A stretch of 64,000 bases of DNA from positions 434,001 to 498,000 of the forward strand of contig OZ237740.1 of the NCBI GenBank assembly GCA_965178125.1, read 5' to 3'. Below, in pieces: positions 3,001 through 37,413 of the stretch. The position numbers were made by a program, and so were the translations under genes. The notes under the pieces are model-generated. The model saw only the letters and a list, made by a program, of their open reading frames with translations, was not told where the DNA came from and ran no database searches. The stretch's first letter is position 1; the number at the start of each line of letters is the position of its first letter. This stretch comes from Bilabrum cf. latius. Its lineage: Eukaryota.

Positions 3001-4157
3001 TATTTTTGTATTTGCCACTTGAAAATCGAACCTAAGAGATTGGGGGCCGTCGAGTTGAGGGCTAGTACAGACTGTCAGTTTGGGACCCAGGTACCCAAAT
3101 ACAGTGATATCAATTATTTATTATCTAATATATATAATAGTATTCGTTATATGTGTATTTTGGGACATGTTTTGAAGATATCGTTGCCATTTCATGTGGC
3201 ATGCTTTCGTGACCCGCACGGGATCGAGCACCAGCTGCGTGGCGGAGGCAAATGTTTGCACACCTTGAATCTCGCCCACTGCTTGTATCCAGGAGGTAAT
3301 ACTACTGTAATAGTTGAATAACTATACTAATATACATAAAGAGGTTTTATTTTAAACAAATACTTGATTTTACAGCAGATACGTACAGTTGAATGCCAAC
3401 CTTACGAAATTTCGTCACCGAACCTTACGAAAGTTCGTACAATTTCGCCGGGTCGGATATCAGGCTGCAGGACGGCCAAATCGCTGCATGGACCGATCAA
3501 GGGGAGCCGTACGGCGGTCTTATCGTATGGGACATGGCGACCAAGAAGGCCCGCTTCGCCGCTGACTGCTTCCTGCTGGAAGGCAACCCGAAATGCGAGG
3601 ACTGGGAAGAGATCATGGAGGACAATGGATATGCAGAAGGCACCCTTGTACAGGTGGGGCCCTCCGTGGTGGCCCTGCTGCTGCAGAAGTACAAGTACGG
3701 CATCGTGCTCATCGACGTCGATCGCATGGAGCAGGTGGGGCTGGCAGCGGAGGGCGAGCACATCCACCTGGCCGAGGCCGTGCATGTGGAGGGCATGGAC
3801 CATGCCATGCTGGTGGCTGGGACCGTGAGTCCTGGTAAACTGCAGGTTTGGTGTCCTGTGGATGGTGACGCAGGTTGGTACAAGAAGCAGCAGGAGGTGG
3901 AGCTCGGCGAGAAGGTGACTGGAGTGACGGCTCTGAAGGCAATTCCGGGGGGCAAGCTGCTCGTGTCTGCACGCCAGGGGGAGTTCCACGACATGCCATT
4001 CGAGAACCACCCCTTCAAGTGCTTCGAGCTGAATGGAGTCAACGTGAAGCTTGCGGCTGCGACTGGGCCCATCGATGATGAGACTGCTGCCGCCGGTGTA
4101 AGCGGGAGCATGCTGCTCCAGGCGGTGGAGGCGCATGCCTACCCGAAGTCTAGCTGA
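1..4157 (+). pseudogene. Copy A of host gene X (paralog of 26810-28219), interrupted by the TIR element; 5' part lies outside the window
   Basis: 3458-4157 translates nearly identically to the C-terminal half of the 26774-28219 ORF, and bases 2-40 (KERLVGCGAPRHY) align to KEPLAGCTVPAHY. The MPTLRNF... start of ORF 3393 comes from transposon sequence. Confidence 0.8.
42..3456. mobile_element. AT-rich TIR DNA transposon (~3.4 kb), transposase not recognised
   Basis: 38-56 atatccgacccggcgaaat is the exact reverse complement of 3442-3460. Joined flanks (cactat/atcaggctg) restore ...RHY-IRLQDG, matching the paralog at ~27482-27540 (PAHYIRLQDG). The TSD is ATAT (element 42-3456) or TA (element 41-3457), ambiguous because the site is palindromic. 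Confidence 0.85.
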
Positions 4158-4809: not shown

Positions 4810-7800
4810 GTGGTGGTGTGGCTGTCCTCCTGTGCCTCGTCCTCCTCCTCTGCTGTCCTCGTGCTCCGTGGTGTGGCTGTCCACCGGTGCATCGTCCTCC
4901 TCCTCTGCTGTCCTCGTGCTTGTAATCCGCCTCATCTGCTGTCCTCCTGCTCCGTGGTGTGGCTGTCCACCTGTGCATCGTCCGCCTCCCCTGCTGCCCT
5001 CCTGCTCCGTGGTGTGGCTGTCCACCGGTGCATCGTCCGCCTCCTCTGCTGTCCTCCTGCTCCGTGGTGTGGCTGTCCCCCCTGTGCATCGTCCGCCTCC
5101 TCTGCTGTCCTCCTGCTCCGTGGTGTGGCTGTCCCCCCTGTGCATCGTCCGCCTCCCCTGCTGCCCTCCTGCTCCGTGGTGTGGCTGTCCTCCTGTGCAT
5201 CGTCCGCCTCCCCTGCTGTCCTCCTGCTCCGTGGTGTGGCTGTCCTCCCTGTGCATCGTCCGCCTCCTCTGCTGTCCTCCTGCTCCGTGGTGTGGCTGTC
5301 CCCCCTGTGCATCGTCCGCCTCCCCTGCTGCCCTCCTGCTCCGTGGTGTGGCTGTCCTCCCTGTGCATCGTCCGCCTCCTCTGCTGTCCTCCTGCTCCGT
5401 GGTGTGGCTGTCCACCTGTGCCTCGTCCGCCTCCTCTGCTGCCCTCCTGCTCCGTGGTGTGGCTGTCCCCCCTGTGCATCGTCCGCCTCCTCTGCTGTCC
5501 TCCTGCTCCGTGGTGTGGCTGTCCTCCTGTGCATCGTCCGCCTCCCCTGCTGTCCTCCTGCTCCGTGGTGTGGCTGTCCCCCCTGTGCATCGTCCGCCTC
5601 CCCTGCTGCCCTCCTGCTCCGTGGTGTGGCTGTCCTCCTGTGCATCGTCCGCCTCCCCTGCTGCCCTCCTGCTCCGTGGTGTGGCTGTCCACCTGTGCAT
5701 CGTCCGCCTCCTCTGCTGTCCTCCTGCTCCGTGGTGTGGCTGTCCTCCTGTGCATCGTCCGCCTCCTCTGCTGTCCTCCTGCTCCATGGTGTGGCTGTCC
5801 CCCCTCTGCCTCAGCCGCCTCCTCTGCTGTCCTCCTGCTCCGTGGTGTGGCTGTCCTCCTGTGCATCGTCCGCCTCCCCTGCTGCCCTCCTGCTCCGTGG
5901 TGTGACTGTCCCCCCTGTGCATCGTCCGCCTCCCCTGCTGTCCTCCTGCTCCGTGGTGTGGCTGTCCTCCTGTGCATCGTCCGCCTCCTCTGCTGTCCTC
6001 CTGCTCCGTGGTGTGGCTGTCCTCCTGTGCATCGTCCGCCTCCTCTGCTGCCCTCCTGCTCCGTGGTGTGGCTGTCCACCGGTGCATCGTCCGCCTCCTC
6101 TGCTGTCCTCCTGCTCCGTGGTGTGGCTGTCCCCCCTGTGCATCGTCCGCCTCCTCTGCTGTCCTCCTGCTCCGTGGTGTGGCTGTCCTCCTGTGCATCG
6201 TCCGCCTCCCCTGCTGTCCTCCTGCTCCGTGGTGTGGCTGTCCTCCTGTGCATCGTCCGCCTCCCCTGCTGTCCTCCTGCTCCGTGGTGTGGCTGTCCCC
6301 CCTGTGCATCATCCGCCTCCTCTGCTGCCCTCCTGCTCCGTGGTGTGGCTGTCCTCCTGTGCCTCGTCCGCCTCCTCTGCTGTCCTCCTGCTCCGTGGTG
6401 TGGCTGTCCTCCCTGTGCATCGTCCGCCTCCTCTGCTGTCCTCCTGCTCCGTGGTGTGGCTGTCCTCCTGTGCATCGTCCGCCTCCTCTGCTGCCCTCCT
6501 GCTCCGTGGTGTGGCTGTCCCCCTGTGCATCGTCCGCCTCCTCTGCTGTCCTCCTGCTCCGTGGTGTGGCTGTCCCCCCGGTGCCTCGTCCTCCTCCTCT
6601 GCTGTCCTCCTGCTCCGTGGTGTAGCTGTCCTCCTGTGCATCGTCCGCCTCCTCTGCTGTCCTCCTGCTCCGTGGTGTGGCTGTCCTCCTGTGCCTCGTC
6701 CGCCTCCTCTGCTGTCCTCCTGCTCCGTGGTGTGGCTGTCCCCCCTGTGCATCGTCCGCCTCCTCTGCTGTCCTCCTGCTCCGTGGTGTGGCTGTCCCCC
6801 CTGTGCATCGTCCGCCTCCTCTGCTGTCCTCCTGCTCCGTGGTGTGGCTGTCCCCCCTGTGCATCGTCCGCCTCTCCTGCTGTCCTCCTGCTCCGTGGTG
6901 TGGCTGTCCCCCCTGTGCCTCGTCCGCCTCCTATGCTGCCCTCGTGCTCCGTGGTGTGGCTGTCCCCCCTGTGCATCGTCCGCCTCCCCTGCTGTCCTCC
7001 TGCTCCGTGGTGTGGCTGTCCTCCTGTGCATCGTCCGCCTCCTCTGCTGTCCTCCTGCTCCGTGGTGTGGCTGTCCCCCCTGTGCATCGTCCGCCTCCTC
7101 TGCTGTCCTCCTGCTCCGTGGTGTGGCTGTCCCCCCTGTGCCTCGTCCGCCTCCTCTGCTGCCCTCCTGCTCCGTGGTGTGGCTGTCCCCCTGTGCATCG
7201 TCCGCCTCCCCTGCTGCCCTCCTGCTCCGTGGTGTGGCTGTCCACCTGTGCATCGTCCGCCTCCCCTGCTGTCCTCCTGCTCCGTGGTGTGGCTGTCCTC
7301 CTGTGCATCGTCCGCCTCCTCTGCTGTCCTCCTGCTCCGTGGTGTGGCTGTCCTCCTGTGCATCGTCCGCCTCCTCTGCTGTCGTCCTGCTCCGTGGTGT
7401 GGCTGTCCCTCCTGTGCATCGTCCGCCTCCTCTGCTGTCCTCCTGCTCCGTGGTGTGGCTGTCCCCCCTGTGCATCGTCCGCCTCCTCTGCTGTCCTCCT
7501 GCTCCGTGGTGTGGCTGTCCTCCTGTGCATCGTCCGCCTCCTATGCTGCCCTCCTGCTCCGTGGTGTGGCTGTCCCCCCTGTGCATCGTCCGCCTCCTCT
7601 GCTGTCCTCCTGCTCCGTGGTGTAGCTGTCCCTCCTGTGCATCGTCCGCCTCCTCTGCTGTCCTCCTGCTCCGTGGTGTGGCTGTCCCCCCTGTGCCTCG
7701 TCCGCCTCCTCTGCTGCCCTCCTGCTCCGTGGTGTGGCTGTCCTCCTGTGCATCGTCCGCCTCCCCTGCTGTCCTCCTGCTCCGTGGTGTGGCTGTCCCC

Positions 7801-10110
7801 CCGGTGCCTCGTCCTCCTCATCTGCTGTCCTCCTGCTCCGTGGTGTAGCTGTCCTCCTGTGCCTCGTCCGCCTCCTCTGCTGTCCTCCTGCTCCGTGGTG
7901 TGGCTGTCCCCCCGGTGCCTCGCCCGCCTCCTCTGCTGTCCTCCTGCTCCGTGGTGTGGCTGTCCTCCTGTGCCTCGTCCGCCTCCTCTGCTGTCCTCCT
8001 GCTCCGTGGTGTGGCTGTCCCCCCTGTGCCTCGTCCGCCTCCTCTGCTGTCCTCCTGCTCCGTGGTGTGACTGTCCCCCCTGTGCATCGTCCGCCTCCTC
8101 TGCTGTCCTCCTGCTCCGTGGTGTGGCTGTCCCCCCTGTGCCTCGTCCGCCTCCTATGCTGCCCTCCTGCTCCGTGGTGTGGCTGTCCCCCCTGTGCCTC
8201 GTCCGCCTCCTCTGCTGCCCTCCTGCTCCGTGGTGTGGCTGTCCTCCTGTGCATCGTCCGCCTCCTATGCTGTCCTCCTGCTCCGTGGTGTGGCTGTCCC
8301 CCCTGTGCATCGTCCGCCTCCTCTGCTGTCCTCCTGCTCCGTGGTGTGGCTGTCCCCCCTGTGCATCGTCCGCCTCCTCTGCTGTCCTCCTGCTCCGTGG
8401 TGTGGCTGTCCTCCTGTGCATCGTCCGCCTCCTCTGCTGTCCTCCTGCTCCGTGGTGTAGCTGTCCTCCTGTGCATCGTCCGCCTCCTCTGCTGTCCTCC
8501 TGCTCCGTGGTGTGGCTGTCCCCCCGGTGCCTCGCCCGCCTCCTCTGCTGTCCTCCTGCTCCGTGGTGTGGCTGTCCTCCTGTGCCTCGTCCGCCTCCTC
8601 TGCTGTCCTCCTGCTCCGTGGTGTGGCTGTCCACCTGTGCATCGTCCGCCTCCCCTGCTGTCCTCCTGCTCCGTGGTGTGGCTGTCCTCCTGTGCATCGT
8701 CCGCCTCCCCTGCTGCCCTCCTGCTCCGTGGTGTGGCTGTCCACCTGTGCCTCGTCCGCCTCCTCTGCTGTCCTCCTGCTCCGTGGTGTGGCTGTCCCCC
8801 CTGTGCATCGTCCGCCTCCTCTGCTGTCCTCCTGCTCCGTGGTGTGGCTGTCCCCCCTGTGCATCGTCCGCCTCCTCTGCTGTCCTCCTGCTCCGTGGTG
8901 TGGCTGTCCCCCCTGTGCATCGTCCGCCTCCCCTGCTGCCCTCCTGCTCCGTGGTGTGGCTGTCCCCCCTGTGCCTCGTCCGCCTCCTATGCTGCCCTCG
9001 TGCTCCGTGGTGTGGCTGTCCCCCCTGTGCATCGTCCGCCTCCCCTGCTGTCCTCCTGCTCCGTGGTGTGGCTGTCCTCCTGTGCATCGTCCGCCTCCTC
9101 TGCTGTCCTCCTGCTCCGTGGTGTAGCTGTCCTCCTGTGCATCGTCCGCCTCCTCTGCTGTCCTCCTGCTCCGTGGTGTGGCTGTCCCCCCGGTGCCTCG
9201 CCCGCCTCCTCTGCTGTCCTCCTGCTCCGTGGTGTGGCTGTCCTCCTGTGCCTCGTCCGCCTCCTCTGCTGTCCTCCTGCTCCGTGGTGTGGCTGTCCAC
9301 CTGTGCATCGTCCGCCTCCCCTGCTGTCCTCCTGCTCCGTGGTGTGGCTGTCCTCCTGTGCATCGTCCGCCTCCCCTGCTGCCCTCCTGCTCCGTGGTGT
9401 GGCTGTCCACCTGTGCCTCGTCCGCCTCCTCTGCTGTCCTCCTGCTCCGTGGTGTGGCTGTCCTCCTGTGCCTCGTCCGCCTCCTCTGCCTCGTCCTGCT
9501 CCGTGGTGTGGCTGTCCTCCTGTGCATCGTCCGCCTCCTCTGCTGTCCTCCTGCTCCGTGGTGTGGCTGTCCTCCTGTGCCTCGTCCGCCTCCTCTGCCT
9601 CGTCCTGCTCCGTGGTGTGGCTGTCCCCCTGTGCATCGTCCGCCTCCTCTGCTGTCCTCCTGCTCCGTGGTGTGACTGTCCACCTGTGCCTCGTCCTCCT
9701 CCCCTGCTGTCCTCCTGCTCCGTGGTGTGGCTGTCCTCCTGTGCCTCGTCCGCCTCCTATGCTGCCCTCCTGCTCCGTGGTGTGGCTGTCCCCCCTGTGC
9801 ATCGTCCGCCTCCTCTGCTGTCCTCCTGCTCCGTGGTGTGGCTGTCCTCCTGTGCATCGTCCGCCTCCTCTGCTGTCCTCCTGCTCCGTGGTGTGGCTGT
9901 CCTCCTGTGCATCGTCCGCCTCCTCTGCTGCCCTCCTGCTCCGTGGTGTGGCTGTCCCCCTGTGCATCGTCCGCCTCCTCTGCCTCGTCCTGCTCCGTGG
10001 TGTGGCTGTCCTCCTGTGCATCGTCCGCCTCCTCTGCTGTCCTCCTGCTCCGTGGTGTGGCTGTCCTCCTGTGCATCGTCCGCCTCCTCTGCTGCCCTCC
10101 TGCTCCGTGG
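4810..10110. repeat. Minisatellite, 55/56-bp unit (ctccgtggtgtggctgtcctcctgtgcatcgtccgcctcctctgctgtcctcctg), roughly 95 copies
   Basis: Directly visible tandem array with few variant sites and some 52-bp units near the 3' end. The long ORFs in all six frames are artefacts of the repeat. Confidence 0.97.
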
Positions 10111-12470
10111 CCGTGCACAGCACTGGGAGTTCACTTTGATACCTGGCCATACACGCGCTTTCGACGTGGCATTACATACGGCAAAGGGCAATACCACGTC
10201 AGTGCAATACCCCGCATGTGGGTAACGGCGGGGCAAGCACTGACTGGCAGTGAACCGATACAGGGCTGTTACTTCGCGCTGTACGCGGTTGTAACCGCTT
10301 TGCCAAGACAATCCAAGCCTTGGCATAGCCGTGAGGCATGGTGACTCGGCAGCCCATAACTGAGCTGCCCGACCACTAGCACATGACCTGGAGATAGAGC
10401 CAGGTCGGTCACTAGACACACGCGTGTCTACAAAGGTGGCAATACGCCACCGCCCTGAGAGCCAAGCATCGTAGCGAGGACTGTAGACCATGACGAAACA
10501 ATCTCGCAGTGATAGATCCCTCGCTTGCGGCTTCCGGTACATGCAAATTGTACTGGTCAACTTTGCTGTTGATCATGGTGCTTCACGATTGGGTGCGTGC
10601 ACTGACGCTCTGCCGCTGCTCTGCTCGTTCCAGCCGCCGCAGCAGGTCTCTTTGTAGTTTACCGGCAGTGATATGACTGCGCCTTCCAACAGAAACAAGA
10701 ATGCAACGGCGAGGTATCAGCTGACACCAACGGGGGTGATGCCGCAGGAGAGGATTCCACCGCACCAACATTCATCAACAACGGCGTGCTGACCAGGCAC
10801 GTGACGTATTCTCGTGTCAGGCACAGCGCCCACGATTGGAGGGGCGGACGGTGCTCCCTTCCATCTCACCGACGACGTCATGTTCTTCAAGATTCCCACC
10901 CCTATCGAACATGGGACCGAGATGACGCGTCAAGCTGCAATCAGACTGCTGTAGCCAGCACTCCGGGTCATCATAGTCTATGCACTCGAATACTCGTCAC
11001 CTCAACTACGGTTGAGAAGGGCGGGTCTAAGGGCAGGTGTTTCTTTCCCGACGTTCCTAGTCGGTTTCTTCACCACCTCATCGGAGGCAAGGCGCCTTTT
11101 CTGTCTACGCGCAACTGGGCCCGCCCGCCGCGGGGGGCGGGCCTAGTACATCCTGTACCTTAGGGCACCTGCGACAACGGCAACAACTCAACCGGCACCG
11201 GATCCACTCCGGGCGCCTATCAGCCCAAATTGAACCGCCACGCCCCAAGGGCATTCATGCCCGAATAGAGCCCACGAGCGAATTTGCACGTTCCGCACAA
11301 GTTGGCTATTCGGATGCCTAACTTTGCATCTGTAGATCCGTTCGGGTACGAGTGGGATGGTTGAGTTGGCACCCGAAGATTTGGCTAGGATCCGGAGAAT
11401 AGTACCGGAGCGCGTCCCCACAGGACTGAAGCGGAGCGCATCATGACGCGCACAAATTACCCTTGGATGGCTCGGCAGCACTGCACGCGAGGTGCCGTGG
11501 AGGATATGTGGAGACAGGCAACATTAATTGGAAGCAGATCGAGCCCGACGACCAGGCCTACTGCAGCAGCGAGGACCACGCCACCTGGTCATCGGCTTCA
11601 ATACGCGTTCCGCGCAGCAGATCGAGCGTACACGAGCACCTGAGTCAGACTGGCAACACCCGATCGACCAACACACGCACGATCGACAACAAATCAAAGT
11701 GGTGAGGGCGGGCCGAGGGCGGCCGCCCTGTGGTGGTGCTGGCGGAGGGCCAGCCCACACCATCACTGTCGCCGTCTTTCTCAGCAACTGTACCCGGCAG
11801 GGTAGATAACGATTAAGTATGCCACAGATCCATCAACTCTGTACGGTCTGTTTCAAATTGGGAGTCGGAGCGCGCGGAGACTTCCGGTTTGATCGGACCG
11901 TGGAGAGTGGCCCTGGAATCTGGCACCCTTGTGGGAGCACGCGCAATAACTAGCGGAAAAAAGATATAAATCTGCGGCACAAGGTAACTGATACCTAGTG
12001 CACGAGGCGCACAACGGATGTTGTAGCTAAAGTTGACCCACTCACCCGTAAGCTGAACAGAGGGGGTGCGACCACAAGTGGAGCACCACCCATCACGCCA
12101 AGGGCGATGAAGGGGATTCGAACTAGGGGACTCAGCACAGTGCTAATGATGTATGTTTTGTATGAACAGATCCATCAACTCTCTACGGTCGCGCTGGGGA
12201 CGAGTCATATGGCCTTGATCCTGACCATGCCGGTCTTATACATCCCCCAGCACCTGCGGTAGGAGCTCCAAATGTGCAGAACCTCCACGGAGAAGCAGCA
12301 CAGCTGGCAGCCCCCATGGCTTGAGCTGATCAGTGAGATAATCCTCCCGGTCGATGTAGCCTTCGGGTGACTAGTTAGCCTGGGTAGCGTGTAGTTTGAA
12401 TAACATTAATTTATCGTCTCTGGGTGTGGTTTGGTTGAAGGAACAAATCTAAACCGTAGTCTAGGTTCAA

Positions 12471-13343
12471 AAGCGACCTCCCATCACGGATGCTGCAGTG
12501 CACCACACACTCGCAGCACCCTGCCCCCAGCCCATCTCAAAAGCGACCTCCCATCACGGATGCTGCAGTGCGCCACACTCTCGCAGCACCCTGCCCCCAG
12601 CCCATCTCAAAAGCGACCTCCCATCACGGATGCTGCAGTGCGCCATACACTCGCAGCACCCTGCCCCCAGCCCATCTCAAAAGCGACCTCCCATCACGGA
12701 TGCTGCAGTGCGCCACACTCTCGCAGCACCCTGCCCCCAGCCCATCTCAAAAGCGACCTCCCATCACGGATGCTGCAGTGCGCCACACACTCGCAGCACC
12801 CTGCCCCCAGCCCATCTCAAAAGCGACCTCCCATCACGGATGCTGCAGTGCACCACACACTCGCAGCACCCTGCCCCCAGCCCATCTCAAAAGCGACCTC
12901 CCATCACGGATGCTGCAGTGCACCACACACTCGCAGCACCCTGCCCCCAGCCCATCTCAAAAGCGACCTCCCATCACGGATGCTGCAGTGCGCCACACTC
13001 TCGCAGCACCCTGCCCCCAGCCCATCTCAAAAGCGACCTCCCATCACGGATGCTGCAGTGCGCCACACTCTCGCAGCACCCTGCCCCCAGCCCATCTCAA
13101 AAGCGACCTCCCATCACGGATGCTGCAGTGCACCACACACTCGCAGCACCCTGCCCCCAGCCCATCTCAAAAGCGACCTCCCATCACGGATGCTGCAGTG
13201 CGCCACACTCTCGCAGCACCCTGCCCCCAGCCCATCTCAAAAGCGACCTCCCATCACGGATGCTGCAGTGCGCCATACACTCGCAGCACCCTGCCCCCAG
13301 CCCAATTCAAAAGCGACCTCCCATCACGGATGCTGCAGTGCAC
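12471..13343. repeat. 70-bp tandem array, 12 full copies plus a partial (aagcgacctcccatcacggatgctgcagtg...cccatctcaa)
   Basis: Units start every 70 bp from 12471 to 13311. The array ends ~50 bp past the stop of the minus-strand MACPF gene. Confidence 0.97.
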
Positions 13344-13392
13344 CTCACAATCATCGTACCCAATCCGGCCCATCCAGAAGTGATGTGACCTC

Positions 13393-16300
13393 TCACTTGC
13401 AAGTGGCATACACGGTGGACACACTGACACCCTGAATGTCCAGCTCGTAGTCTTGTTCCGGCACCCCGACGGCCAGGGCGCGCCTGGATGCATCGTAGCG
13501 AGCTTGCTCTGCGTCATTCAGGGTTTGTTCGGGCGTCGAGAACCAGCCCGAATCTAGACGCCTGTGCTCTCTCTCTGCGTTGGCGTACGTTGTACGAGCT
13601 GCCTCCAGCCCGCGCCTGGCATCATCAGCCTCGCCAGCCGACGTTGGAAGGTAGTGGTCTAGCCACTTCATACCAGTGCCTCTCGTCGCCATCACCTGCA
13701 GGCACATGTGAGTGCTGGTGTGACGGTGCTTCTGGGTGGTAGGGAACGGCTGCAAGTCAGACTCGACGTGGAAGGGGTGTCCGAAGTTCACACCGAGGAC
13801 GGCGCGCATTGCCGTCGTCGGGCCGAAGCTTCTGGTCTCCGCCATGGACTCCAGCCGAGGATAGAGACTGCTGCCGCGACTTCCGCTGTTGCATGCAGAG
13901 TTGAACTGGATCAACAGAGGAACTGGTTTGTGGGACAGCGGCTTGACATACAGAGTCCAGGTGCCTGCCACAGGGAGCCTCTCGCCGATTGTAGTAGCGT
14001 CCTGCCCTGGCTCAGATCCAACTGCCGAGGTGCCAGCGTCTGCAAACATCTTCAGTGGGGCCACGCGATCCACCGACACTTCCAGAAGCATAGGAGAATC
14101 CACCTTATTCATCGCGCTCTTGTGCGTTTTACCCCAGCTCAGCTGAATGCCGTGCGCATACTACATCGGTGCATCATCCAGCTGACAAGACGTCAAGCCT
14201 CGCCGCAACCCGCTCAGCCCATACGCCTGCAGCTTGAACGTGCTAGCCACATCGGCCGGGTCCACCTTGCGGTAGATCACGCGGACTCCCCCGATGCTGT
14301 CTTCTCGCCCCTTCGCACTCACACGCGGACTCAGCGATGCATCAGGCAACCCCTCCTCGTCGTGCTGTAGCTTGCCAGCCGTGTACACGCCGGCCTCAGA
14401 CCGAAGCAGGCTGCCCTCCACCGCGCGGAAGAGCGGCTTCGTCTTGCACTTCTGGCTCCCAATGCTGTGCAGGCCACCCCACACCAGCTTCTCTTTCGTG
14501 GCCCCCGGCAGCTTGATCTCCACAGGACGCACGTATCCCACTTCCAGCGGGGAGCAGAACGAGGACGCCAGACACACGTGACGGGCCTGGCACAGACCGT
14601 CCGGCTCTGAGTCGCCCTTGACACCGCACCTAGGCAGCGGGTACCTGCACGACCCTCCCTCCTGCTCCGCCTCTTTGCGGTACTTATCCGGGCAGTAGTC
14701 GCCAGTGCCCAGGATCGCATGCAGGGCGCGCTTCCGGATCGATTCGAGCTGGGTCAGCCGGCACGTCTCGCCCAGCAGCGCCTCTTCCCCCTCGGGCAGC
14801 GGCCTGCCGTACTTGTGCTCGAATGACGTGCACTCCAGGCTAGACGGCGGCTGGAATCGAGTGCCGCCGCGCTTACCGCACGCCAGGTGGGTGCCGCTAC
14901 CATCGCCCCCAGCGGACCCACCAGCTCCCGACTCGCCAGAGACATACGACATGTAGTGCGATACGGAGCTGAGGCACGCCCTGCACGCGTCTGTCGCCTG
15001 CTGGTGGTACTCGTTGACGATCTTGGTGGTGGTGCTGCCGTCCGGATGCCTGTGCTCGCGCTCTGACTCGAACTTGTTCACGATAGCAAACTCCGAGTCG
15101 TTCAGGTGGCAGGACTTGCGGAAGGCCTCGTGCTTCCTGGCCATCTCGTCGCAGTCCTGCAGCGGGTACGGCTTGGCCTCTGGGAATCCATTCGCGCTGC
15201 GCTCGTTGTGGATCTTGATCAGGTAGTTGAGCACCTCCTCGCAGTCTGCCTTGGGCAGGCCCGTCTCGGCCGACAGCCGCAGCAGCGTGCTTGCACCGTG
15301 CGACGCAAACACGTTGTGCGAGGCCTGCCGAATGCGCTCCTGCATGGCGGCTTCGATGAGGAACTTCCTGGCCTTGGCGGCTTGCAGCACCTGGGATAGT
15401 GGGATGTCCTTGAGCTCGTTGCCGTCGGCGTCAAGCATCTAGGTATCTCCGGACATGAAGCACATCCTCCCGACCGCTTCCATGCTCTCCACCCTGCCGC
15501 GGCTCGACCGTTTGCCTGCCTCCATCGCTATGCGGGTGCACGCCTCCCAGTCGCCGAAGAGAGCCAGGCCGTGCAGGGCCCAGAACTTCATGTCCACCAC
15601 GGCCGGCATCGTGTCCACCGTGGTGGCCCAGCGCTTGAGCCCAGCCATCATCGTCTCGCGGTCCTGCGTGGCGCTGACGAGGCTGGGCTCGCCTCCTCTG
15701 ACGCTCACCGTGACGTCTGTGGCGAGCTGAGCAGTGCGCCGAGACTTGCCGGACGACCACGCCGCGCTGAGATCCACTCCTGCCTTGCCCCCACTGGAGG
15801 CCAGCTCTGCCAGCTGCAGGGCCCGTTGGATGGTGGGCCCGTCCTCGCGGATGGAGCTGGTCTTGTACGAGGTGTCCACGACTTCCTCCCGCCCGTCCAC
15901 GATGCGGGTGTACTTGGTGTTGGTGGTGGTGGTGTGGTTGGAGCGAGACGCCGTGAGGATGTCACCGACTGAGATGGACTCTGCCGGGTCGAAGCTGGCC
16001 TGCAGGGAGAGGGCGGTGTCGGTGTGCTCGTCCGTGGAGAGCTTCTCGGAGCTGAACTTGCGGGTGACGGTGTACTCCCCTCCCATCGCGATGCTCGTGG
16101 ACACGAGTTCACCATACGTGTTAAGGAATCCAAGGTACTGATCCTGTACCCAATCAGGGACAGAGGCCCACAACTTCTGAAGGCCCTCGCGGCCGAGCGC
16201 CTTGCCAGGATAGAAGTCTTTGATGTACTCCACAGCATTGGAGGTGACGCGTAGTTGCAGAACAGCTCTCTTGAACTCATCCGTAAGCAGCGTCTCGTCA

Positions 16301-26809: not shown

Positions 26810-28219
26810 ATGGCTGGAGTTGCAGGAGCAACTGAAGCTGATAAATCCAGTCATTCAAGTGACGGCGGGGAGGTGAGCGCCACTGCTCATGCGGCTGATT
26901 GGGTCGATGAATCGATGCGTGCGGACGACGGATGCGAAGCCGTCACAATCGGTGATGTACAGTGGGAAATGATGAAAACCCGCATGATTGGATTCAGCAC
27001 TTTAGATCATTTGACTGGCATGCCGGAAGGGTACGCCCTGACCAAGGTGTGCACGTTCGATGAGGACGAGCTCGAGGTTTTCGATACTTCGTCTGGCAAG
27101 GTGGTCGCCACGATCAAGCTCGAAAATCAAGGCAAGTGTTACTACGACATGTTCTACATTCCCCGGTCTGGCATCTTCACCTTAATCGACGTGGGGGTAT
27201 ACCATGTTGACCTGCACAAACTCGAAGCAACCGAGCTGCCTGGCTCGAAAGACTACTGCTACTGGCCTGGGCTACTTGACCGCGCATCTGGTAACCAGCT
27301 GCGTCCATGGGCCAAGTTCGAGGTGTACTCCTACTCGGCTACTACTGGCAAGCAGACCACGATCGAGGCGGCAGAGGTGCAGGCCACCGTTCCGATCGAA
27401 TCTGAGCTTGTGAAAGGCAAGTCGCCCGTAACCCGTGTCCACAAAACGCTGACGGGGCCCATCAGGGGTATGTCTGTCCTCAAGGAGCCTTTGGCTGGCT
27501 GCACCGTTCCTGCACACTACATCAGGCTGCAGGATGGCCGAATCGCAGCATGGGCTGAGCAAGGGGAGGGGTACGGTGGCCTGATCATGTGGGACATGGC
27601 GACCAAGAAGGTCCGCTTCGCCGCTGCCTGCTTCCTGCTGGAAGACAACCCAAAATGCGAGGACTGGGAAGAGATCATGGAGGATAATGGAGATACAGAC
27701 GGCACCCTTGTGCAGGTGGGTCCCTCCATGGTGGCCCTGCTGCTGCAGAACCACAAGTACGGCATCGTGCTCATCGACGTTGATCGCATGGAGCAAGTGG
27801 GGCTTGCAGCGGAGGGCGAGCACATCCACCTGGCCGAGGCCGTGCATGTGGAGGGCATGGACCATGCCATGCTGGTGGCTGGGACCGTGAGTCCTGGTAA
27901 ACTGCAGGTGTGGTGTCCTGTAGACGGTGATGCAGGTTGGTACAAGAAGCAGCAGGAGGTTGAGCTCGGCGAGAAGGTGACGGGAGTGACGGCTCTGAAG
28001 GCAATTCCGGGGGGCAAGCTGCTGGTGTCTGCACGCCAAGGGGAGTTCAGCGATACGTCTTTTGATGACCACCCCTTCAAGTGCTTCGAGCTGAAGGGTG
28101 TCAAGGTACAGCTGTCGGCTGCGACAGAAGCCATGGATGATGAGACTGCTACAGCCGGTGTAGGCGGGAGCATGCTGCTCCAGGCGATGGAGGCGCATGG
28201 CGAATCTGGTTCTAGCTGA
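26810..28219 (+). CDS. Host gene X copy B, 469-aa hypothetical protein (possibly beta-propeller-like)
   Basis: Long ORF with strong GC3 codon bias that is conserved with the paralog at 3458-4157 and ends in TGA. The fold is a guess from short strand-like segments. Confidence 0.8.
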   Translation: MAGVAGATEADKSSHSSDGGEVSATAHAADWVDESMRADDGCEAVTIGDVQWEMMKTRMIGFSTLDHLTGMPEGYALTKVCTFDEDELEVFDTSSGKVVATIKLENQGKCYYDMFYIPRSGIFTLIDVGVYHVDLHKLEATELPGSKDYCYWPGLLDRASGNQLRPWAKFEVYSYSATTGKQTTIEAAEVQATVPIESELVKGKSPVTRVHKTLTGPIRGMSVLKEPLAGCTVPAHYIRLQDGRIAAWAEQGEGYGGLIMWDMATKKVRFAAACFLLEDNPKCEDWEEIMEDNGDTDGTLVQVGPSMVALLLQNHKYGIVLIDVDRMEQVGLAAEGEHIHLAEAVHVEGMDHAMLVAGTVSPGKLQVWCPVDGDAGWYKKQQEVELGEKVTGVTALKAIPGGKLLVSARQGEFSDTSFDDHPFKCFELKGVKVQLSAATEAMDDETATAGVGGSMLLQAMEAHGESGSS

Positions 28220-28420
28220 TCAGTGGAATTCAGGATTTCAGATTGTCCATGATTCCGGAATCCGGATCCGAAAGTTTTGACCACAAAGGATCAATCGGAT
28301 AGACTGAAGCTTTGCCCCGTGCAGGTTTACCTTGACCTCGATTGAAATTACGCTACTAGACCTGGCTGATAAACCGCATGAATCCGGATTGCAAGAAGCT
28401 AATTCTAGCAAATTGAAAAA

Positions 28421-28805
28421 GCAACTTCCCATCATGGATGCTGCACTGCACCACACACTCACACAGCACCCTGCCCCTTGCCAAATCCGAAAGCGACCTC
28501 CCATCACGGATGCTGCAGTGCACCTCGCACTCGCAGCACCCTGCCCCAAGCCCAATTCAAAAGCGACCTCCCATCACGGATGCTGCAGTGCACCACGCAC
28601 TCGCAGCACCCTGCCCCAAGCCCAATTCAAAAGCGACCTCCCATCACGGATGCTGCAGTGCACCACGCACTCGCAGCACCCTGCCCCAAGCCCAATTCAA
28701 AAGCGACCTCCCATCACGGATGCTGCAGTGCACCACGCACTCGCAGCACCCTGCCCCAAGCCCAATTCAAAAGCGACCTCCCATCACGGATGCTGCAGTG
28801 CACCA
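28421..28805. repeat. 70-bp tandem array, copy B (~5 units)
   Basis: Same family as 12471-13343, with array-specific variants (ccccaagcccaattcaa). Confidence 0.93.
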
Positions 28806-28852
28806 CACAATAATAGTATCCAATCGGGCCCATCTGGTAGTGCTCTGACCTC

Positions 28853-31800
28853 TCATTTGCACGTGGCATACACGGTGGACACACTTACACCCTGAATGTC
28901 CAGCTCGTAGTCCTGTTCCGGTACACCGACGGCCAGGGCGCGCCTGGATGCATCGTAGCGAGCTTGCTCTGCGTCATTCAGGGTTTGATCGGGCGTCGAG
29001 AACCAGCCCGAATCTAGACGCCTGTGCTCTCGGACTGCGTTGGCGTACGTTGTACGAGCCGCCTCCAGCCTGCGCCTGGCATCATCAGCCTCGCTGGCCT
29101 TCGTTGGAAGGTAATGGTCTAGCCACTTCATACCAGTACCACTCGTCGCCATCACCTGCAGGCACATGTGAGTGCTGGTGTGACGGTGCTTCTGGGTGGT
29201 AGGGAACGGCTTCAGGTCCGACTCGACGTGGAAGGGGTGTCCGAAATTCACACCAAGCACGGCGCGCATTGCCGTCGTCGGGCCGAAGCTTCTGGTCTCC
29301 GCCATTGACTCCAGCCGAGGGTACAGACTGCTGCCGCGACTCCCGCTGTTGCATGCAGAGTTGAACTGGATCAACAGAGGAACTGGTTTGTGGGACAGCG
29401 GCTTGCCATACAGAGTCCAGGTGCCTGCCACAGGGAGCCTCTCGCCGATTGTAGTAGCGTCCTGCCCTGGCTCAGATCCCCATGCCGAGGTGCCAGCGTC
29501 TGCGAACATCTTCAGCGGGGCCACGCGATCCACCGACACTTCCAGAAGCATTGGTGGTATCGCCCTTGCCACTGCACTCTTGTGATCACGACCCCAGCTC
29601 AGCTGAATACCATGATTGTATTGCATCGGTGCATCATCCAGCTGACAAGACGTCAAGCCACGCCGCAGCCCGCTCAGCCCATACGACTGCAGCTTGAACG
29701 TGTTAGCCACATCGGCCGGATCCACCTTGCGGTAGATCACGTTGACTCCTCCGATGCTGTCCTCTCGCCCCTTCGCACTCACACGCGGACTCAGCGATGC
29801 ATCAGGCAACCCCTCCTCGTCGTGCTGTAGCTTGCCAGTCGTGTACACGCCGGCTTCAGACCGAAGCAGGCTGCCCTCCACCGCGCGGAAGAGCGGCTTC
29901 GTCTTGCACTTCTGGCTCCCAATGCTGTGCAGGCCACCCCACACCAGCTTCTCTTTCGTGGCCCCCGGCAGCTTGATCTCCACAGGACGCACGTATCCCA
30001 CTTCCAGCGGCGAGCAGAACGAGGACGCCAGACACACGTGCCGGGCCTGGCACAGACCGTACGGCTCTGAGTCGCCTTCGACACCGCACCTAGGCAGCGG
30101 GTGCCTGCACTCCCCTCCCTCCTGCTCCGCCTGTTTGCGGTACTTGTCCGGGCAGTAGCCGCCAGTGCCCAGGATAGCATGCAGGGCGCGCTTCCGGATT
30201 GCCTCGAGCTTAGTAAGCCGGCATGTCTCGCCCAACAGCGCCTCTTCCCCCTCGGGCAGCGGCCTGCCGTACTTGTGCTCGAATGACGTGCACTCCAGGC
30301 TAGACGGCGGCTGGAATCGAGTGCCGCCGCGCTTGCCGCACGCCAGGTGGATGCCGCTGCCATCGCCCCCAGCGGACCCATCAGCCCCTGACTCGCCAGA
30401 GACATACGACATGTAGTGCGACACGGAGCTGAGGCACGCCCTGCACGCGTCTGTCGCCTGCTGGTGGTACTCGTTGACGATCTTGGTGGTGGTGCTGCCG
30501 TCCGGATGCCTGTGCTCGTGCTCTGACTCGAACTTGTTCACGAGAGCAAACTCCGAGTCGTTCAGGTGGCAGGACTTGCGGAAGGCCTCGTGCTTCCTGG
30601 CCATCTCGTCGCAGTCCTGCAGCGGGTACGGCTTGGCCTCTGGGAATCCATTCGCGCTGCGCTCGTTGTGGATCTTGATCAGGTAGTTGAGCACCTCCTC
30701 GCAGTCTGCCTTGGGCAGGCCCGTCTCGGCCGACAGCCGCAGCAGCGTGCTTGCACCGTGCGACGCAAACACGTTGTGCGAGGCCTGCCGAATGCGCTCC
30801 TGCATGGCGGCTTCGATGAGGAACTTCCTGGCCTTGGCGGCTTGCAGCACCTGGGATAGTGGGATGTCCTTGAGCTCATTGCCGTCGGCGTCCAGCATCT
30901 AGGTATCTCCGGACATGAAGCACATCCGGCCGACCGCTTCCATGCTCTCCACCCTGCCGCGGCTCGACCGTTTGCCTGCCTCCATCGCTATGCGGGTGCA
31001 CGCCTCCCAGTCGCCGAAGAGAGCCAGGCCGTGCAGGGCCCAGAACTTCATGTCCACCACGGCCGGCATCGTGTCCACCGTGGTGGCCCAGCGCTTGAGC
31101 CCAGCCATCATCGTCTCGCGGTCCTGCGTGGCGCTGACGAGGCTGGGCTCGCCTCCCCTGACGCTCACCGTGACGTCTGTGGCGAGCTGAGCAGTGCGCC
31201 GAGACTTGCCGGACGACCACGCCGCGCTGAGATCCACTCCTGCCTTGCCTGCACTGGAGGCCAGCTCTGCAAGCTGCAGGGCCCGTTGGATGGTGGGCCC
31301 GTCCTCGCGGATGGAGCTGGTCTTGTACGAGGTGTCCACGACTTCCTCCCGCCCGTCCACGATGCGAGTGTACTTGGTGCTGGCGGTGGTGGTGTGGTTG
31401 GAGCGAGACGCCGTGAGGATGTCACCGACTGAGATGGACTCTGCCGGGTCGAAGCTGGCCTGCAGGGAGAGGGCGGTGTCGGTGTGCTCGTCCGTGGAGA
31501 GCTTCTCGGAGCTGAACTTGCGGGTGACGGTGTACTCCCCTCCCATCGCGATGCTCGTGGACACGAGTTCACCATACGTGTTAAGGAATCCAAGGTACTG
31601 ATCTTGTACCCAATCAGGGACAGAGGCCCACAACTTCTGAAGGCCCTCGCGGCCGAGCGCCTTGCCAGGATAGAAGTCTTTGATGTACTCCACGGCATTG
31701 GAGGTGACGCGTAGTTGCAGAACAGCTCTCTTGAACTCATCCGTAAGCAGCGTCTCGTCAAGCACCAGCTGGCACTCAATCGTTTCAAGTGCATCGTCAG

Positions 31801-32480
31801 TGGCTTTTCCGATATCAAGGGGCCCTGCTCGTACTTCATGTGGCAGTAGCGGCGTAGTTGAACCATCTTTTCTGGCCTTATCCAGGCAGCCGACAGCGTA
31901 GATGCTCTCTGGAACACTCAGTGAATGCGTCAAGATGGTGCGGGTGGTAGAAACGGTAGTCCCTTCATTAGCAGACTGCTGCGAAGAATCTGAAGACGTT
32001 GATGCGCTTATTCCAGCTACAATTGGACCTAAAGCGGCGCTGAGTCCGAGCTTGGTAGCGCGCTACGATGCCACATCGACGGCATCGCTACAGTGCTGCG
32101 CAGTACTGCTCGAAGTTGCCGTTGCCCTCCTCTACAGGTCAACCTGCGCAGCCATAAATCAATTGAGGTTGCATCATATTAGTCGTTTTTATTCATTTCA
32201 TTTTCCAGTAGGCAGAATACCAGAATACCAGAATTATTTGTAGGCAGTATGACGAGTGTAATGTTGCGCGCACTTCATTTATTCAGATTTGGTTCTTGCG
32301 ACCAAATTGTGGGCGCGCGCGCCCGGAAACATCGGGGGATCCGCATCATGGCTCCCAATGCGATCAATCGGCTCGAAATACAAACGAAGCAAGCTTACAT
32401 CAATTCAAATATGATACTTAGCTCAAATTCTGTATAATCAAGATCTCACATAATCTGGGACCCACACCATCCCCGTCGGC
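28853..32480 (-). pseudogene. MACPF-like protein 1 copy B, 3' portion (exon 2 32143-28853, intron 32449-32144, end of exon 1); exon 1 split by the virophage
   Basis: Colinear with copy A at a constant offset of 15460 across exon 2. The rest of exon 1 is at 56129-56360. Confidence 0.8.
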
Positions 32481-34099
32481 TGTTATCCGCCAAAATGTGG
32501 AGTTATGATAACTCTATTTCTACTATATAGTAGAAATAGAGTTTACTTATATAAAAACTACACACATTTTGGCGGATAACATAAGAGGTCAATATTAACC
32601 ACTTCACAACATCTTAAGCCGTAGTCCTTCATAATGTCCTTCACTTGAACATAATAATTTAATAGCTATTTATTCATATATCTACCTAATTTAATACCTT
32701 CGCGCCGTTAATGTCTATCTGTTAGACCTTTACTTTACTTAATCTGTTGAGTGAATCCCTAGCCTAAGTCTTAGGATATGCCCGCCCGAAATTGCGGAAA
32801 TATATAGTCATTTAAGAATATATGTTCGCAATTCTGGGCGCGTAGGTGTATTGAGTTTTATATTATGATTTGGTTTTAAGTATCAATTGACATTTACCAC
32901 TTTAGAAAATAACTAAATAAATACTTAAAGAGATTGACAGAAGTATTAAAGTCTTTTTAATACTTCCAATGAAAAATTTAAATTAATAAATAAAACTAAA
33001 CTAATATATCAACTTAATTTATCTCTTTTTTTATTACTTGTCAATCTATACTTAAATAATTGAATATTTAAATTTAACTAGAAGGAGATATTAATCACTT
33101 TATAAAGTCTTTTATATGTCATCTCTTCAAAACTTCAAATATAAGGGTATCCCCTTAAAAATACATCCTTTAATCTATCGCCCGAAATTGCGGTAATATT
33201 ATAGCTATTCAAGATATATTTTCGCAATTCTGGGCGCGTAGGTGTATTGAGTTTTATTTTTCATAATTCTTTAAATATGTTTAAGTCCTTTGTTTGAGTA
33301 TATGATATAAAGGAATACAAAACGGGATAACTTAAAAATGATAAATATTTTGACGATGACTTTAAAATGATAAATATTTTGACGATAACTTAAAAATGAT
33401 AAATGTTTTGACGATGACTTTAAAATGACTCAATGAACTGGTTTATGTCAAGTGTATTACTTTGAAATGATTAATCACTAGATTAAATGGAAAATATAGG
33501 ATAATTAAATATGGTATAGTATAATACTAGCGCCCGAAATTGCGGTAATATATTAGGATATTAAGATATATTGTCGCAATTCTGGGCGCGTAGGTGTATT
33601 GAGTTTTATATTTTGTTAATTTTGACATAGTTATCTTATAGAGGTGTAATTTTGTAATAAAGATATTTCTAGTATGTGCTATATTAAATGTCCAGAAATG
33701 ACGGCCCGAAATTGCGGAAATATATTAGGATATTAAGAGATATTGTCGCAATTCTGGGCGCGTAGGTGTCTTCAATAATTAATAATCAACTACTTCTTTA
33801 TTTTGATTAATTTTTTTGACTTACCGTTCATTTTATTGACCACTTAACGGGATATCACAAAAAGACTTAACCACTTGACGAGATATTTTAAAATAACTAA
33901 TAATAAATATGACCGCCCCAAATTGTATCTCCAGATATGACCGCCCCAAATTGTATCTCCAGATATGACCGCCCCAAATTGTATCTCCAGATATGACCGC
34001 CCCAAATTGCGGAAATATATAAGTATCAAGAAAATTATGTTTGCAATTCTGGGCGCTCACCCGTATTCAATTTTACATATTCACTAACTCATACCACTT
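32481..34099 (+). repeat. Left terminal inverted repeat (1619 bp)
   Basis: Reverse complement of 54566-56128, with two extra copies of a 28-bp unit (atatgaccgccccaaattgtatctccag). Contains five 58-bp dyads and a ~29-bp x3.5 array at ~33330-33430. Confidence 0.95.
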
Positions 34100-35757: not shown

Positions 35758-37413
35758 ATGACTAATAAAGGCAAGACATACACTAGAGGTAAAATATCTT
35801 ACACGTATGGTGATGAACCGACAAAAAATCAAAAAGATAGTGATAATTTAGAAGCCACTATTAAGGGACTACTTGATAAAGGGTTTAATGAGATACCAAC
35901 CACTAAAGAAAGTATTAAAAAGATTCCTTTATACTCTTACGTTTCGTACATCTCAAATATCAAAGGAAAGCCACTATTTAGAAGAGGTGGGGTAATTAAC
36001 TCAATATAGAAGGATGGAGACTATTTCACTTTATATAACTTAGTGAGTCGTGTTCATTTTAGCGTTCAATAGTCTAACCTAGTTCGTCTTTTTTATAAGA
36101 TGACTAAAGCTTAGACGAAAAAACTTAATAAACCAACCGGTAAATTAATTGAAGTAGAAGATGAGGACGACAAAGACAAATTTAATTATAAACCAATATT
36201 AAAGAAACTATATTATGAAGAAGGTAATGTAGTCAGTCGTGATGCGTTATATGACCTAGCTAGACAAAAAGATAAACGTATTAAAAGACGACAAGTAGAA
36301 AAGTGGTTAAATAACTAGATGCTCCACCAATTGACCAAAAAACGACCTAAACAGTCAGCAGTAAGTTCTTTTGTACCTACTAAGCCTTTCTCAATTTACG
36401 CATTGGACTTAATAGACATGCAAAAGTATTCAGACACTAATGACGGCTATAATTGGATATTAAATATAATGGATATATTCACAAAATACCTATGGAGTAT
36501 TTCATTAAAAGATAAGACATTAGTTAATATAATTCGTGAGATGAAGAAACTATTTAAGAAACCTAATTGGAGAAAACCGACTGTTATGTTAAGTGATAAT
36601 GAGTTTAATAAAGAGGCATATATTAAATTTATGAATGACAATGACATAAAACCACTATTCACCATCGCAGGAAATCCATAGTCTAATGGTGCAGTTGAAA
36701 GACTTAATAGGACTATAAAAGAATAGATTAGAAAAGACTTTGCTATTAAGAATGACAGTGATGGTGTTTGGCATACGTCATTATAGAGACTAGTAAGAGC
36801 ATATAATAAGAGAAAACACAACACTATAGGAATGTCTCCACTAGAAGCAATGAAACCCGAAAATTTAGAAGTAGTTAGATCTAGAATTGAAAATAAGAAA
36901 TTATCCAATAATTTCGACGGGAATGATAAAGATCTTAATGTAGGGGATAGAGTTAGAGTATTACTTGAGAAGAACAAGTTTAAAGGGAATTTATTCAATT
37001 GGTCTAGAGAAGTCTTCACTGTTAGATAGAAGACCAAACCAAGAAATCCCAAGTAGAGGATTAAATATAAAGTAATGGACAAAGAGGGAGAACCTCTTAC
37101 TGGATTCTTTAATGCTTCACAGTTATAGAAAATAGACAATGTAGAACACGAAGATAAGGTAAATGATGACATAGACAAGGAAAGTGAAGAGCCTGAAATT
37201 GATAATGTTGAAGGTTTAGAAGTAGAACCAGACACAATAGAGAAGTTTTTAGATAAAAGACAAAATAAAGATAGACTTATTGAATACTTAGTCAAATATA
37301 AGGGATATTCTAATAAGTTTAATGAATGGATTACCCGTAAGAAATTAGAATAGGATTATGGGAAAGACCAAATACGACCACTTGCGAAAGACTATTCTGA
37401 TAGATAGAGATAA
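35758..37413 (+). CDS. Retroviral-type (rve, DDE) integrase with C-terminal chromodomain, 551 aa
   Basis: One frame with ~12 TAGs and a final TAA. Motifs ALDLIDM, IMDIFTKY, LSDNEF, NP*SNGAVERLNRTIKE, YNKRKHNTIGMSP, VGDRVRV and chromo-like EYLVKYKGYSNKFNEW. Confidence 0.92.

Follow-up and report, generated by a model that had tools for sequence, protein, structure and literature searches.

Probable use of UAG as a glutamine codon in nuclear genes of a eukaryote and in the virophage-like element integrated among them

The genetic code in which UAG encodes glutamine (Gln, Q) and UAA and UGA remain stop codons is NCBI table 15. It is described for the fornicate Iotanema spirale (PMC5304391) and for Protocruzia tuzeti and two phyllopharyngean ciliate lineages (PMC11687900). 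For lineages in which UAG alone is reassigned, a transfer RNA (tRNA) for Gln with the anticodon CUA and a changed eRF1 are argued in PMC5304391. Both UAA and UAG (UAR) encode Gln in ciliates, some ulvophytes, Hexamita, Streblomastix and the aphelid Amoeboaphelidium protococcarum, as cited in PMC11687900 and PMC6299283. Bacteriophages with TAG as Gln ('code 15') are reported from hosts with the standard code (PMC9523058, PMC10879173). Endogenous virophages of the mavirus type are reported from Cafeteria burkhardae and Halocafeteria seosinensis (PMC8547959; 10.64898/2026.07.28.741278). The stretch described here, called the window below, comprises 64,000 nucleotides (nt) of contig OZ237740.1 (assembly GCA_965178125.1, Bilabrum cf. 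latius; positions 434,001 to 498,000 of the forward strand). It contains a tandem pair of MACPF genes (copies A and B), a second, third and fourth host gene, and an integrated virophage-like element, referred to as the virophage. Coordinates of all features are given in Table 1.

The host nuclear DNA reads UAG as an amino acid, most likely Gln, with a probability of approximately 0.8; host genes end at UGA, and those of the virophage at UAA or UGA. Host frames, paralogs, spliced contigs and alignment columns of the virophage integrase together make UAG = Gln the most likely code of the host. That TAG is a sense codon in host genes was proposed in an initial annotation of this DNA and is upheld by long frames free of TGA and TAA, synonymous bias, the homologue P0161, the spliced contigs and the dependence of the virophage genes on TAG as a residue. 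As in Iotanema, Protocruzia and the phyllopharyngean ciliates, UAG coincides with conserved Gln positions, and genes stop at UAA or UGA, never at UAG in the data. Unlike the AT-rich ciliate cases of UAG = Gln, the DNA is GC-rich (approximately 58–64%) and forms a long, duplicated, intron-bearing chromosomal stretch. In contrast to the lineages with an established UAG = Gln code, the evidence here is that of one virophage and four host genes and does not draw on a genome or transcriptome.

Codons were counted in four non-redundant host frames: spliced MACPF copy A, copy b of the second gene, the partial third gene and the fourth gene (3430 codons). TAG occurs in frame 11 times, TAA and TGA not at all. 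The two off-frames of the same DNA contain 32 TAG, 22 TAA and 172 TGA. From these counts TGA and TAA are kept out of frame, and TAG occurs at approximately the background rate. The stop codon of all four frames is TGA. GC content at codon positions 1, 2 and 3 is 0.60, 0.50 and 0.75 in exon 2 of MACPF copy A; across the MACPF and second-gene frames it is 0.69–0.75 at the third position versus 0.50 at the second.

The MACPF frames at 13393–16698 (copy A) and 28853–32158 (copy B), 3306 nt each, are open once TAG is taken as a residue. Between them there are 118 substitutions and no insertion or deletion (indel), which corresponds to 96% identity. A TAG of copy A opposite a CAA of copy B had been reported in the initial annotation; both codons were re-read on the minus strand and are as claimed. 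The path CAA–CAG–TAG is fully synonymous if TAG encodes Gln. At codon 420 the copies do not differ, TAG 15439–15441 of copy A being matched by TAG 30899–30901 of copy B. The TAGs 20290/58302 and 21322/59310, also named as retained, are indeed present in both duplicates of the second gene, and the TAGs 20506/58494, 22183/60171 and 22189/60177 are likewise common to its two copies. The MACPF domain (PF01823) is recognised in copies A and B with 41.3 and 40.9 bits (cut-off 21.5) at residues 138–378 of the exon-2 frame; the E value for copy A is 2.6e-10. Atlas neighbours of the protein are MACPF clusters (scores 0.94–0.95). No match was found among proteins of similar length, and the sole match among shorter ones is P0161 (351 amino acids, from another assembly), which aligns with residues 746–1084 at 43% identity (E 1e-84). 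This alignment spans the swapped codon, and the TAG of copy A therefore sits in the middle of a conserved domain. No related locus was found with the MACPF C-terminal alignment among metagenome contigs.

Substitutions between the MACPF copies are distributed as 30/21/67 over codon positions 1/2/3; 59 codon differences are synonymous and 38 non-synonymous. The ratio of non-synonymous to synonymous substitution rates (dN/dS) is 0.235 overall, 0.147 before TAG420, 0.233 between TAG420 and TAG846, and 0.258 after TAG846. As judged from these ratios, the paralogs are under purifying selection beyond the TAGs. Coding-like conservation on both sides of the TAGs, as claimed earlier, is thus seen in the low dN/dS past the swapped codon and in the homology to P0161 across it. 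In the second-gene pair substitutions are distributed as 3/5/19, with 18 synonymous and 9 non-synonymous changes, some of them after the third TAG, and a 24-nt indel between the copies preserves the frame. In the duplicated part of the third gene they are distributed as 5/6/11, with 10 synonymous and 12 non-synonymous changes. This weaker constraint fits with the state of copy a, which is truncated and has a 7-nt indel.

It is extremely unlikely that the TAGs are nonsense mutations in decaying duplicate pseudogenes or lie in unrecognised in-frame introns. Damaged copies do occur: MACPF copy B is split by the virophage, a 1-nt frameshift affects copy a of the second gene, and copy a of the third gene carries the truncation and indel just mentioned. 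Decay is opposed by a dN/dS of 0.15–0.26 in every MACPF segment, including those after TAGs, by the lack of TGA and TAA in 3430 codons versus 172 and 22 off frame, and by the retention of shared TAGs in both copies. Moreover, since the virophage divides exon 1 of copy B, the CAA copy is the disrupted one and the extra TAG is borne by the intact copy. The intron variant of this explanation is opposed by the spliced contigs described next, which cross three TAG sites without a skip, and by the swap site of copy B, which is CAA and offers no AG acceptor.

Contigs from four public runs (X1, X2, X3, X7) were placed on 13393–22090. The joint 16681->18088 (cut +2) is present in X1, X2 and X3 and has GT..AG ends on the gene strand (CT..AC on the plus strand). 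Exon 1 joins exon 2 at 16683; ATG 16695 is therefore intronic, and the TAGs 16674–16672 and 16605–16603 are coding. The apparent start at ATG 16695 is accordingly replaced by that of an upstream exon, at 18347. The spliced frame of copy A (exon 1 plus exon 2) is in phase and comprises 3549 nt, 1182 codons plus TGA. As the exons join in frame, the intron is defined whatever molecule was sequenced. Joined contigs are gapless and collinear across the TAGs at 16672, 16603 and 15439 (X1 record 3; X2 records 10 and 11; X3 record 16). Removal of TAGs by splicing, named in the initial annotation as an observation that would speak against it, is not seen at these three sites. In X7 neither canonical joint (16681->18088, or 18779->18911 of the second gene) is seen.

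Four other joints (13708->15359, 15393->15661, 16720->17885 and 16820->16888) were discounted as products of paralog or repeat matching or of the short-intron version of copy B; their ends are non-canonical, their sides measure 21–33 letters, or they occur in one run only. The hydrophobic leader of exon 1 is a putative signal peptide. No Pfam family was found for exon 1 or for the open reading frame (ORF) in the intron. This ORF (16969–17985) was rejected as a gene; it is non-coding intron repeat. The segment 16721–17884, approximately 1.1 kb of intron 1 of copy A, is missing from the short intron of copy B and is internally duplicated. Its contig depth in X7 is 3122 and 1808, versus approximately 140–1270 in other bins. 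The segment thus probably represents a transposon or dispersed repeat. Synonymous divergence of the MACPF copies climbs from 5' to 3' (dS 0.03, 0.08 and 0.20), with a dense patch of changes at codons 846–869; this pattern suggests that the 5' part of the copies may have undergone gene conversion.

The virophage, bordered by a 5-bp target-site duplication, entered exon 1 of MACPF copy B 28 nt upstream of the splice donor; copy A represents the empty site. Its terminal inverted repeats (32481–33953 and 56128–54656) are 1473 bp long and 99.9% identical, which suggests that the insertion may be recent. Like endogenous virophages of the mavirus type, it is a low-GC element of approximately 24 kb with long terminal inverted repeats and a target-site duplication in a GC-richer host chromosome, and it has rve integrase and capsid genes as well as candidate protease and ATPase genes. 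It differs from them in that every large gene needs TAG as a residue and in that the replication gene is of the Prim-Pol type, not a protein-primed polymerase. The integrase matches the Pfam families rve (32.8 bits, cut-off 32.6) and Chromo (30.3 bits, cut-off 25.1). The capsid protein matches MCP_V20_C, the C-terminal domain of Sputnik V20 (E 3.2e-7, 30.4 bits, cut-off 27). The candidate packaging ATPase has AAA matches below threshold only, the candidate cysteine protease a weak Peptidase_C57 match (E 0.004), and the penton candidate no Pfam family; order and sizes of these three by the capsid gene are consistent with the type. Neither the capsid protein alone nor the capsid alignment gave a related locus among viral contigs, nor did the alignment among metagenome contigs. 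Entry P0008 of a large protein collection is the full-length capsid protein with TAG already written as Q, which is a gene-calling choice and not independent evidence. The same collection has no entry for the MACPF frame.

The 14 virophage genes (4904 codons) contain 69 TAG, 120 CAA, 6 CAG and neither TAA nor TGA in frame. TAG is the second most used of the Gln codons, and CAG is largely replaced. The standard code breaks 13 of the 14 genes. Sense use of TAG common to host and virophage, as proposed in the initial annotation, agrees with this: the virophage genes are open only with TAG as a residue. Code-15 phages resemble the virophage in having a genome rich in in-frame TAG read as Gln. Their code differs from that of the host, and they frequently encode a suppressor tRNA of their own; in the present case the use of TAG is shared by the host genes, and the element has no tRNA.

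Virophages associate with giant viruses. This can be counted in favour of another origin of the GC-rich genes, namely a giant virus or large mobile element in which TAG is read through a virus-borne suppressor tRNA during infection, the code of the host being standard. The four GC-rich genes include no housekeeping family, MACPF being the sole Pfam match, and the locus is repeat-rich and duplicated. This origin is nonetheless very unlikely, as two GT..AG introns are present in gene orientation, the target-site duplication lies within an exon, which is what integration into the chromosome of a cell would produce, and the locus occurs in 7 runs from 3 studies under 3 organism labels. Furthermore, a search for tRNA genes with ARAGORN found none in the whole 64 kb, and Rfam at gathering scores gave no match; the virophage likewise has none by ARAGORN or Rfam.

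The residue encoded by TAG was assessed in the virophage integrase. A full HMMER search gave 12,845 matches at E<=0.001. The best 150 were used, one of them being the query's own cluster; the remaining 149 homologues (29–42% identity) were aligned with X written at the TAGs. At 3 of the 12 TAG columns most homologues have Q: 187 (126/148), 308 (87/149) and 457 (91/143). The solved integrase 4pa1_A has the motif NPQS, with Q at column 308. Log-odds summed over nine well-filled TAG columns are +10.6 for Q, −3.7 for arginine (R) and −5.0 for lysine (K). As a control, the same scoring assigned 31 of 32 sense codons their standard residue. The capsid relatives P0009 (88% identical) and P0010 (86%) have Q at 4 of 6 and 3 of 6 TAG places, respectively. 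The proposed value of Gln is thus strongly supported by the integrase alignment; its host part comes down to the one TAG/CAA paralog swap.

Of 18 visible gene ends, 14 in the virophage and 4 in the host, 10 are TAA and 8 are TGA, and a TAG stop is needed at none. The virophage genes end in TAA (10) or TGA (4). Conserved host genes ending in TAG, which the initial annotation had listed as evidence that would contradict it, number 0 among the four visible ends. On the question, raised there, whether host genes terminate at TAA, all four visible ends are TGA. The accompanying claim that UAA remains a stop holds for the virophage, where TAA ends 10 of 14 genes and is never in frame, and has indirect support in the host. 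TAA ends none of the host genes in the window, and UAA as a host stop is therefore inferred through the virophage. The TAA end of the integrase matches its homologues: residues up to 548–550 of 551 align with P0021, P0023 and P0032 and come within 3–9 residues of where these proteins end.

A code in which UAA and UAG both encode Gln and TGA is the sole stop (NCBI table 6) is in line with the four TGA ends of the host genes and is described as the commoner reassignment in eukaryotes (PMC11687900, PMC6394959). As in such codes, a stop codon has here been captured by Gln. In them, in contrast to the virophage, TAA is a sense codon too. In-frame TAA is absent from 4904 virophage codons at approximately 30% GC, despite 120 CAA and 6 CAG; 10 of 14 virophage genes end in TAA; the TAA end of the integrase coincides with the ends of its three homologues; and the host frames contain no in-frame TAA where approximately 3.5 would be expected (from a CAA:CAG ratio of 35:111). 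The two-codon reassignment is therefore rated as improbable. An aphelid origin of the DNA, considered at first, was dropped on similar grounds: Amoeboaphelidium is cited with TAA as well as TAG for Gln, at odds with the virophage.

An ambiguous UAG, sense in the interior of genes and stop near the ends of messenger RNAs, or partially read through, is judged quite improbable. It accords with TAGs close to gene ends (codons 1138 and 1140 in a 1147-codon frame of the second host gene, codon 550 of the 551-codon integrase gene and codon 625 of the 628-codon capsid gene). It does not accord with the 18 gene ends, none of which requires a TAG stop, with the capsid relatives, which carry on past the place of TAG625 with conserved residues, or with the background frequency of internal TAGs, which argues for efficient decoding.

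Several observations weigh against UAG = Gln as the code of the host. The commonest residues at the other 9 of the 12 integrase TAG columns are N, Y, K, L, P, K, S, E and N, and among these columns several are variable or sparsely filled. Column 119, at first a further Q column, was an artefact of writing Q at the TAGs and is lost with X. The Qs of P0009 and P0010 are not independent, since these proteins were possibly called under the same reading. P0161 has glutamic acid (E), not Q, opposite the swapped codon, and a single host TAG has a direct partner codon (CAA). The run-through of contigs is read from collinearity, not from the letters at the TAG sites; none of the public runs with the locus is listed as RNA; the library type of X1–X3 is unrecorded and was guessed to be RNA, with X1 flagged as 'probably DNA'; unspliced pieces occur alongside joined ones (X1 record 5, X3 record 18). 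For TAA as a host stop, the evidence is the virophage and an absence of in-frame TAA that is weak at so low an expected number.

Under the preferred reading, UAG = Gln, the GC-rich DNA would be nuclear DNA of a eukaryote whose ribosomes decode UAG as Gln. MACPF is a two-exon gene in tandem duplicate, and its TAG/CAA difference would be a synonymous change through CAA–CAG–TAG, the residue being Gln throughout. The integrated virophage would be translated by the host machinery and adapted to the host code. By analogy with described UAG-only reassignments, decoding may involve a tRNA-Gln with anticodon CUA and an eRF1 blind to UAG.

Table 1. Positions of host and virophage features in the 64,000-nt window.
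Feature	Position	Strand	Remarks
MACPF copy A exon 1, coding part	18090–18347	−	ATG 18347–18345; 86 codons; hydrophobic N-terminal leader; 0 TAG
MACPF copy A intron 1	16684–18089	−	1406 nt; GTGAG...CAG; holds ATG 16695 and a repeat insert of approximately 1.1 kb
MACPF copy A exon 2	13393–16683	−	1096 codons plus TGA; TAGs 16674–16672, 16605–16603, 15441–15439, 14163–14161
MACPF copy A, swapped codon TAG	14163–14161	−	within ...CCG ATG TAG TAT GCG...
MACPF copy B exon 1, first 232 nt of coding part	56129–56360	−	ATG 56360–56358; stops at virophage border
MACPF copy B exon 1, last 31 nt	32450–32480	−	severed by virophage; first 5 bp are the target-site duplicate
MACPF copy B exon 2	28853–32143	−	CAA 29623–29621; TAGs 30901–30899, 32065–32063, 32134–32132
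MACPF copy B, partner codon CAA	29623–29621	−	within ...CCG ATG CAA TAC AAT...
Second host gene, 5' leader intron	18780–18910	+	131 nt; GT..AG; joint 18779->18911 in X1, X2, X3
Second host gene, copy a	19014–22215	+	two frames through one extra base near 19933–19935; TAGs 20290, 20506, 21322, 22183, 22189
Second host gene, copy b	57027–60203	+	1058 codons from ATG; ends TGA; TAGs 58302, 58494, 59310, 60171, 60177
Third host gene	61835–64000	−	runs off window; 721 codons seen; TGA end; TAGs 63043–63041, 62368–62366
Fourth host gene	26810–28219	+	469 codons; 0 in-frame TAG; TGA end
Integrated virophage-like element	32481–56128		23,648 bp; approximately 30% GC; inside MACPF copy B exon 1
Virophage integrase (rve and chromodomain)	35758–37413	+	551 codons; 12 in-frame TAG; TAA end
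Virophage major capsid protein	47687–49573	+	628 codons; 6 in-frame TAG
Virophage primase(-helicase)	51222–54020	−	932 codons; 11 in-frame TAG; Pfam Prim-Pol E 8.9e-14

A unit of approximately 15.4 kb is tandemly duplicated in the window. Segment A (12959–16720) and segment A' (28417–32180) are 95.7% identical, segment B (18116–25020) and segment B' (56129–62971) 97–98% identical, and the virophage is located between A' and B'. The second host gene is oriented divergently from MACPF copy A. The extra base of its copy a is absent from copy b (site 57945) and from the contigs of all four mapped runs; it is either a real frameshift of copy a or an assembly error. The TAGs 18915 and 18996 were discarded as evidence; both fall in the 5' leader, before the probable start codon, and are uninformative. 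A partial paralog of the 3' half of the fourth gene is present at 3393–4157 (versus 27521–28199, 91% identity) and hints at a further repeat unit upstream. No Pfam family was found for the second, third and fourth genes. The ORF at 22636–25341 was rejected as a gene; it is a non-coding, GC-rich chance frame.

Repeat arrays are numerous. A 5.3-kb array of 55–56-bp units (4813–10110) has 68% GC, an AT skew of approximately −0.89 and all frames open on both strands. Arrays of 70-bp units (12364–13500, 28384–28890) begin right after the MACPF stop and are longer behind copy A. Arrays of 67-bp units (22094–22862, 60082–60783) overlap the end of the second gene and extend downstream. Positions 1–3400 have 41–45% GC and no long open frame under either code.

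A search of the literature on virophages and polinton-like elements, supplementary files not covered, gave no description of a virophage or host with TAG as a residue. The terms 'genetic code', 'TAG', 'stop codon' and 'glutamine' are absent from the main text of the preprint on the Halocafeteria virophage (10.64898/2026.07.28.741278). The nearest remark seen concerns an ochre-suppressor tRNA in some virophages (PMC6905037).

Few eukaryotic nuclei have UAG reassigned without UAA; PMC5304391 and PMC11687900 name Iotanema, Protocruzia and two lineages of phyllopharyngean ciliates. The code variant is a known one, and this eukaryote adds a case. Each added lineage helps to test how UAG can be uncoupled from UAA at the level of tRNA and eRF1. 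For annotation, the standard code fragments every large gene of the window. Of further interest is that the virophage has adopted the host code and sits in a coding exon of one MACPF copy. Tentatively, and with less than even confidence, the host may belong to a protist lineage outside the ciliates for which reassignment of UAG alone to Gln is not yet on record; the virophage endogenous to it, and by extension the giant virus on which that virophage depends, would then be co-adapted (69 TAG versus 6 CAG), and the code might act as a host-range barrier for the triad of virus, virophage and host. The virophage is a case of integrating viruses following the code of their host, which bears on host prediction for metagenomic virophages and giant viruses.

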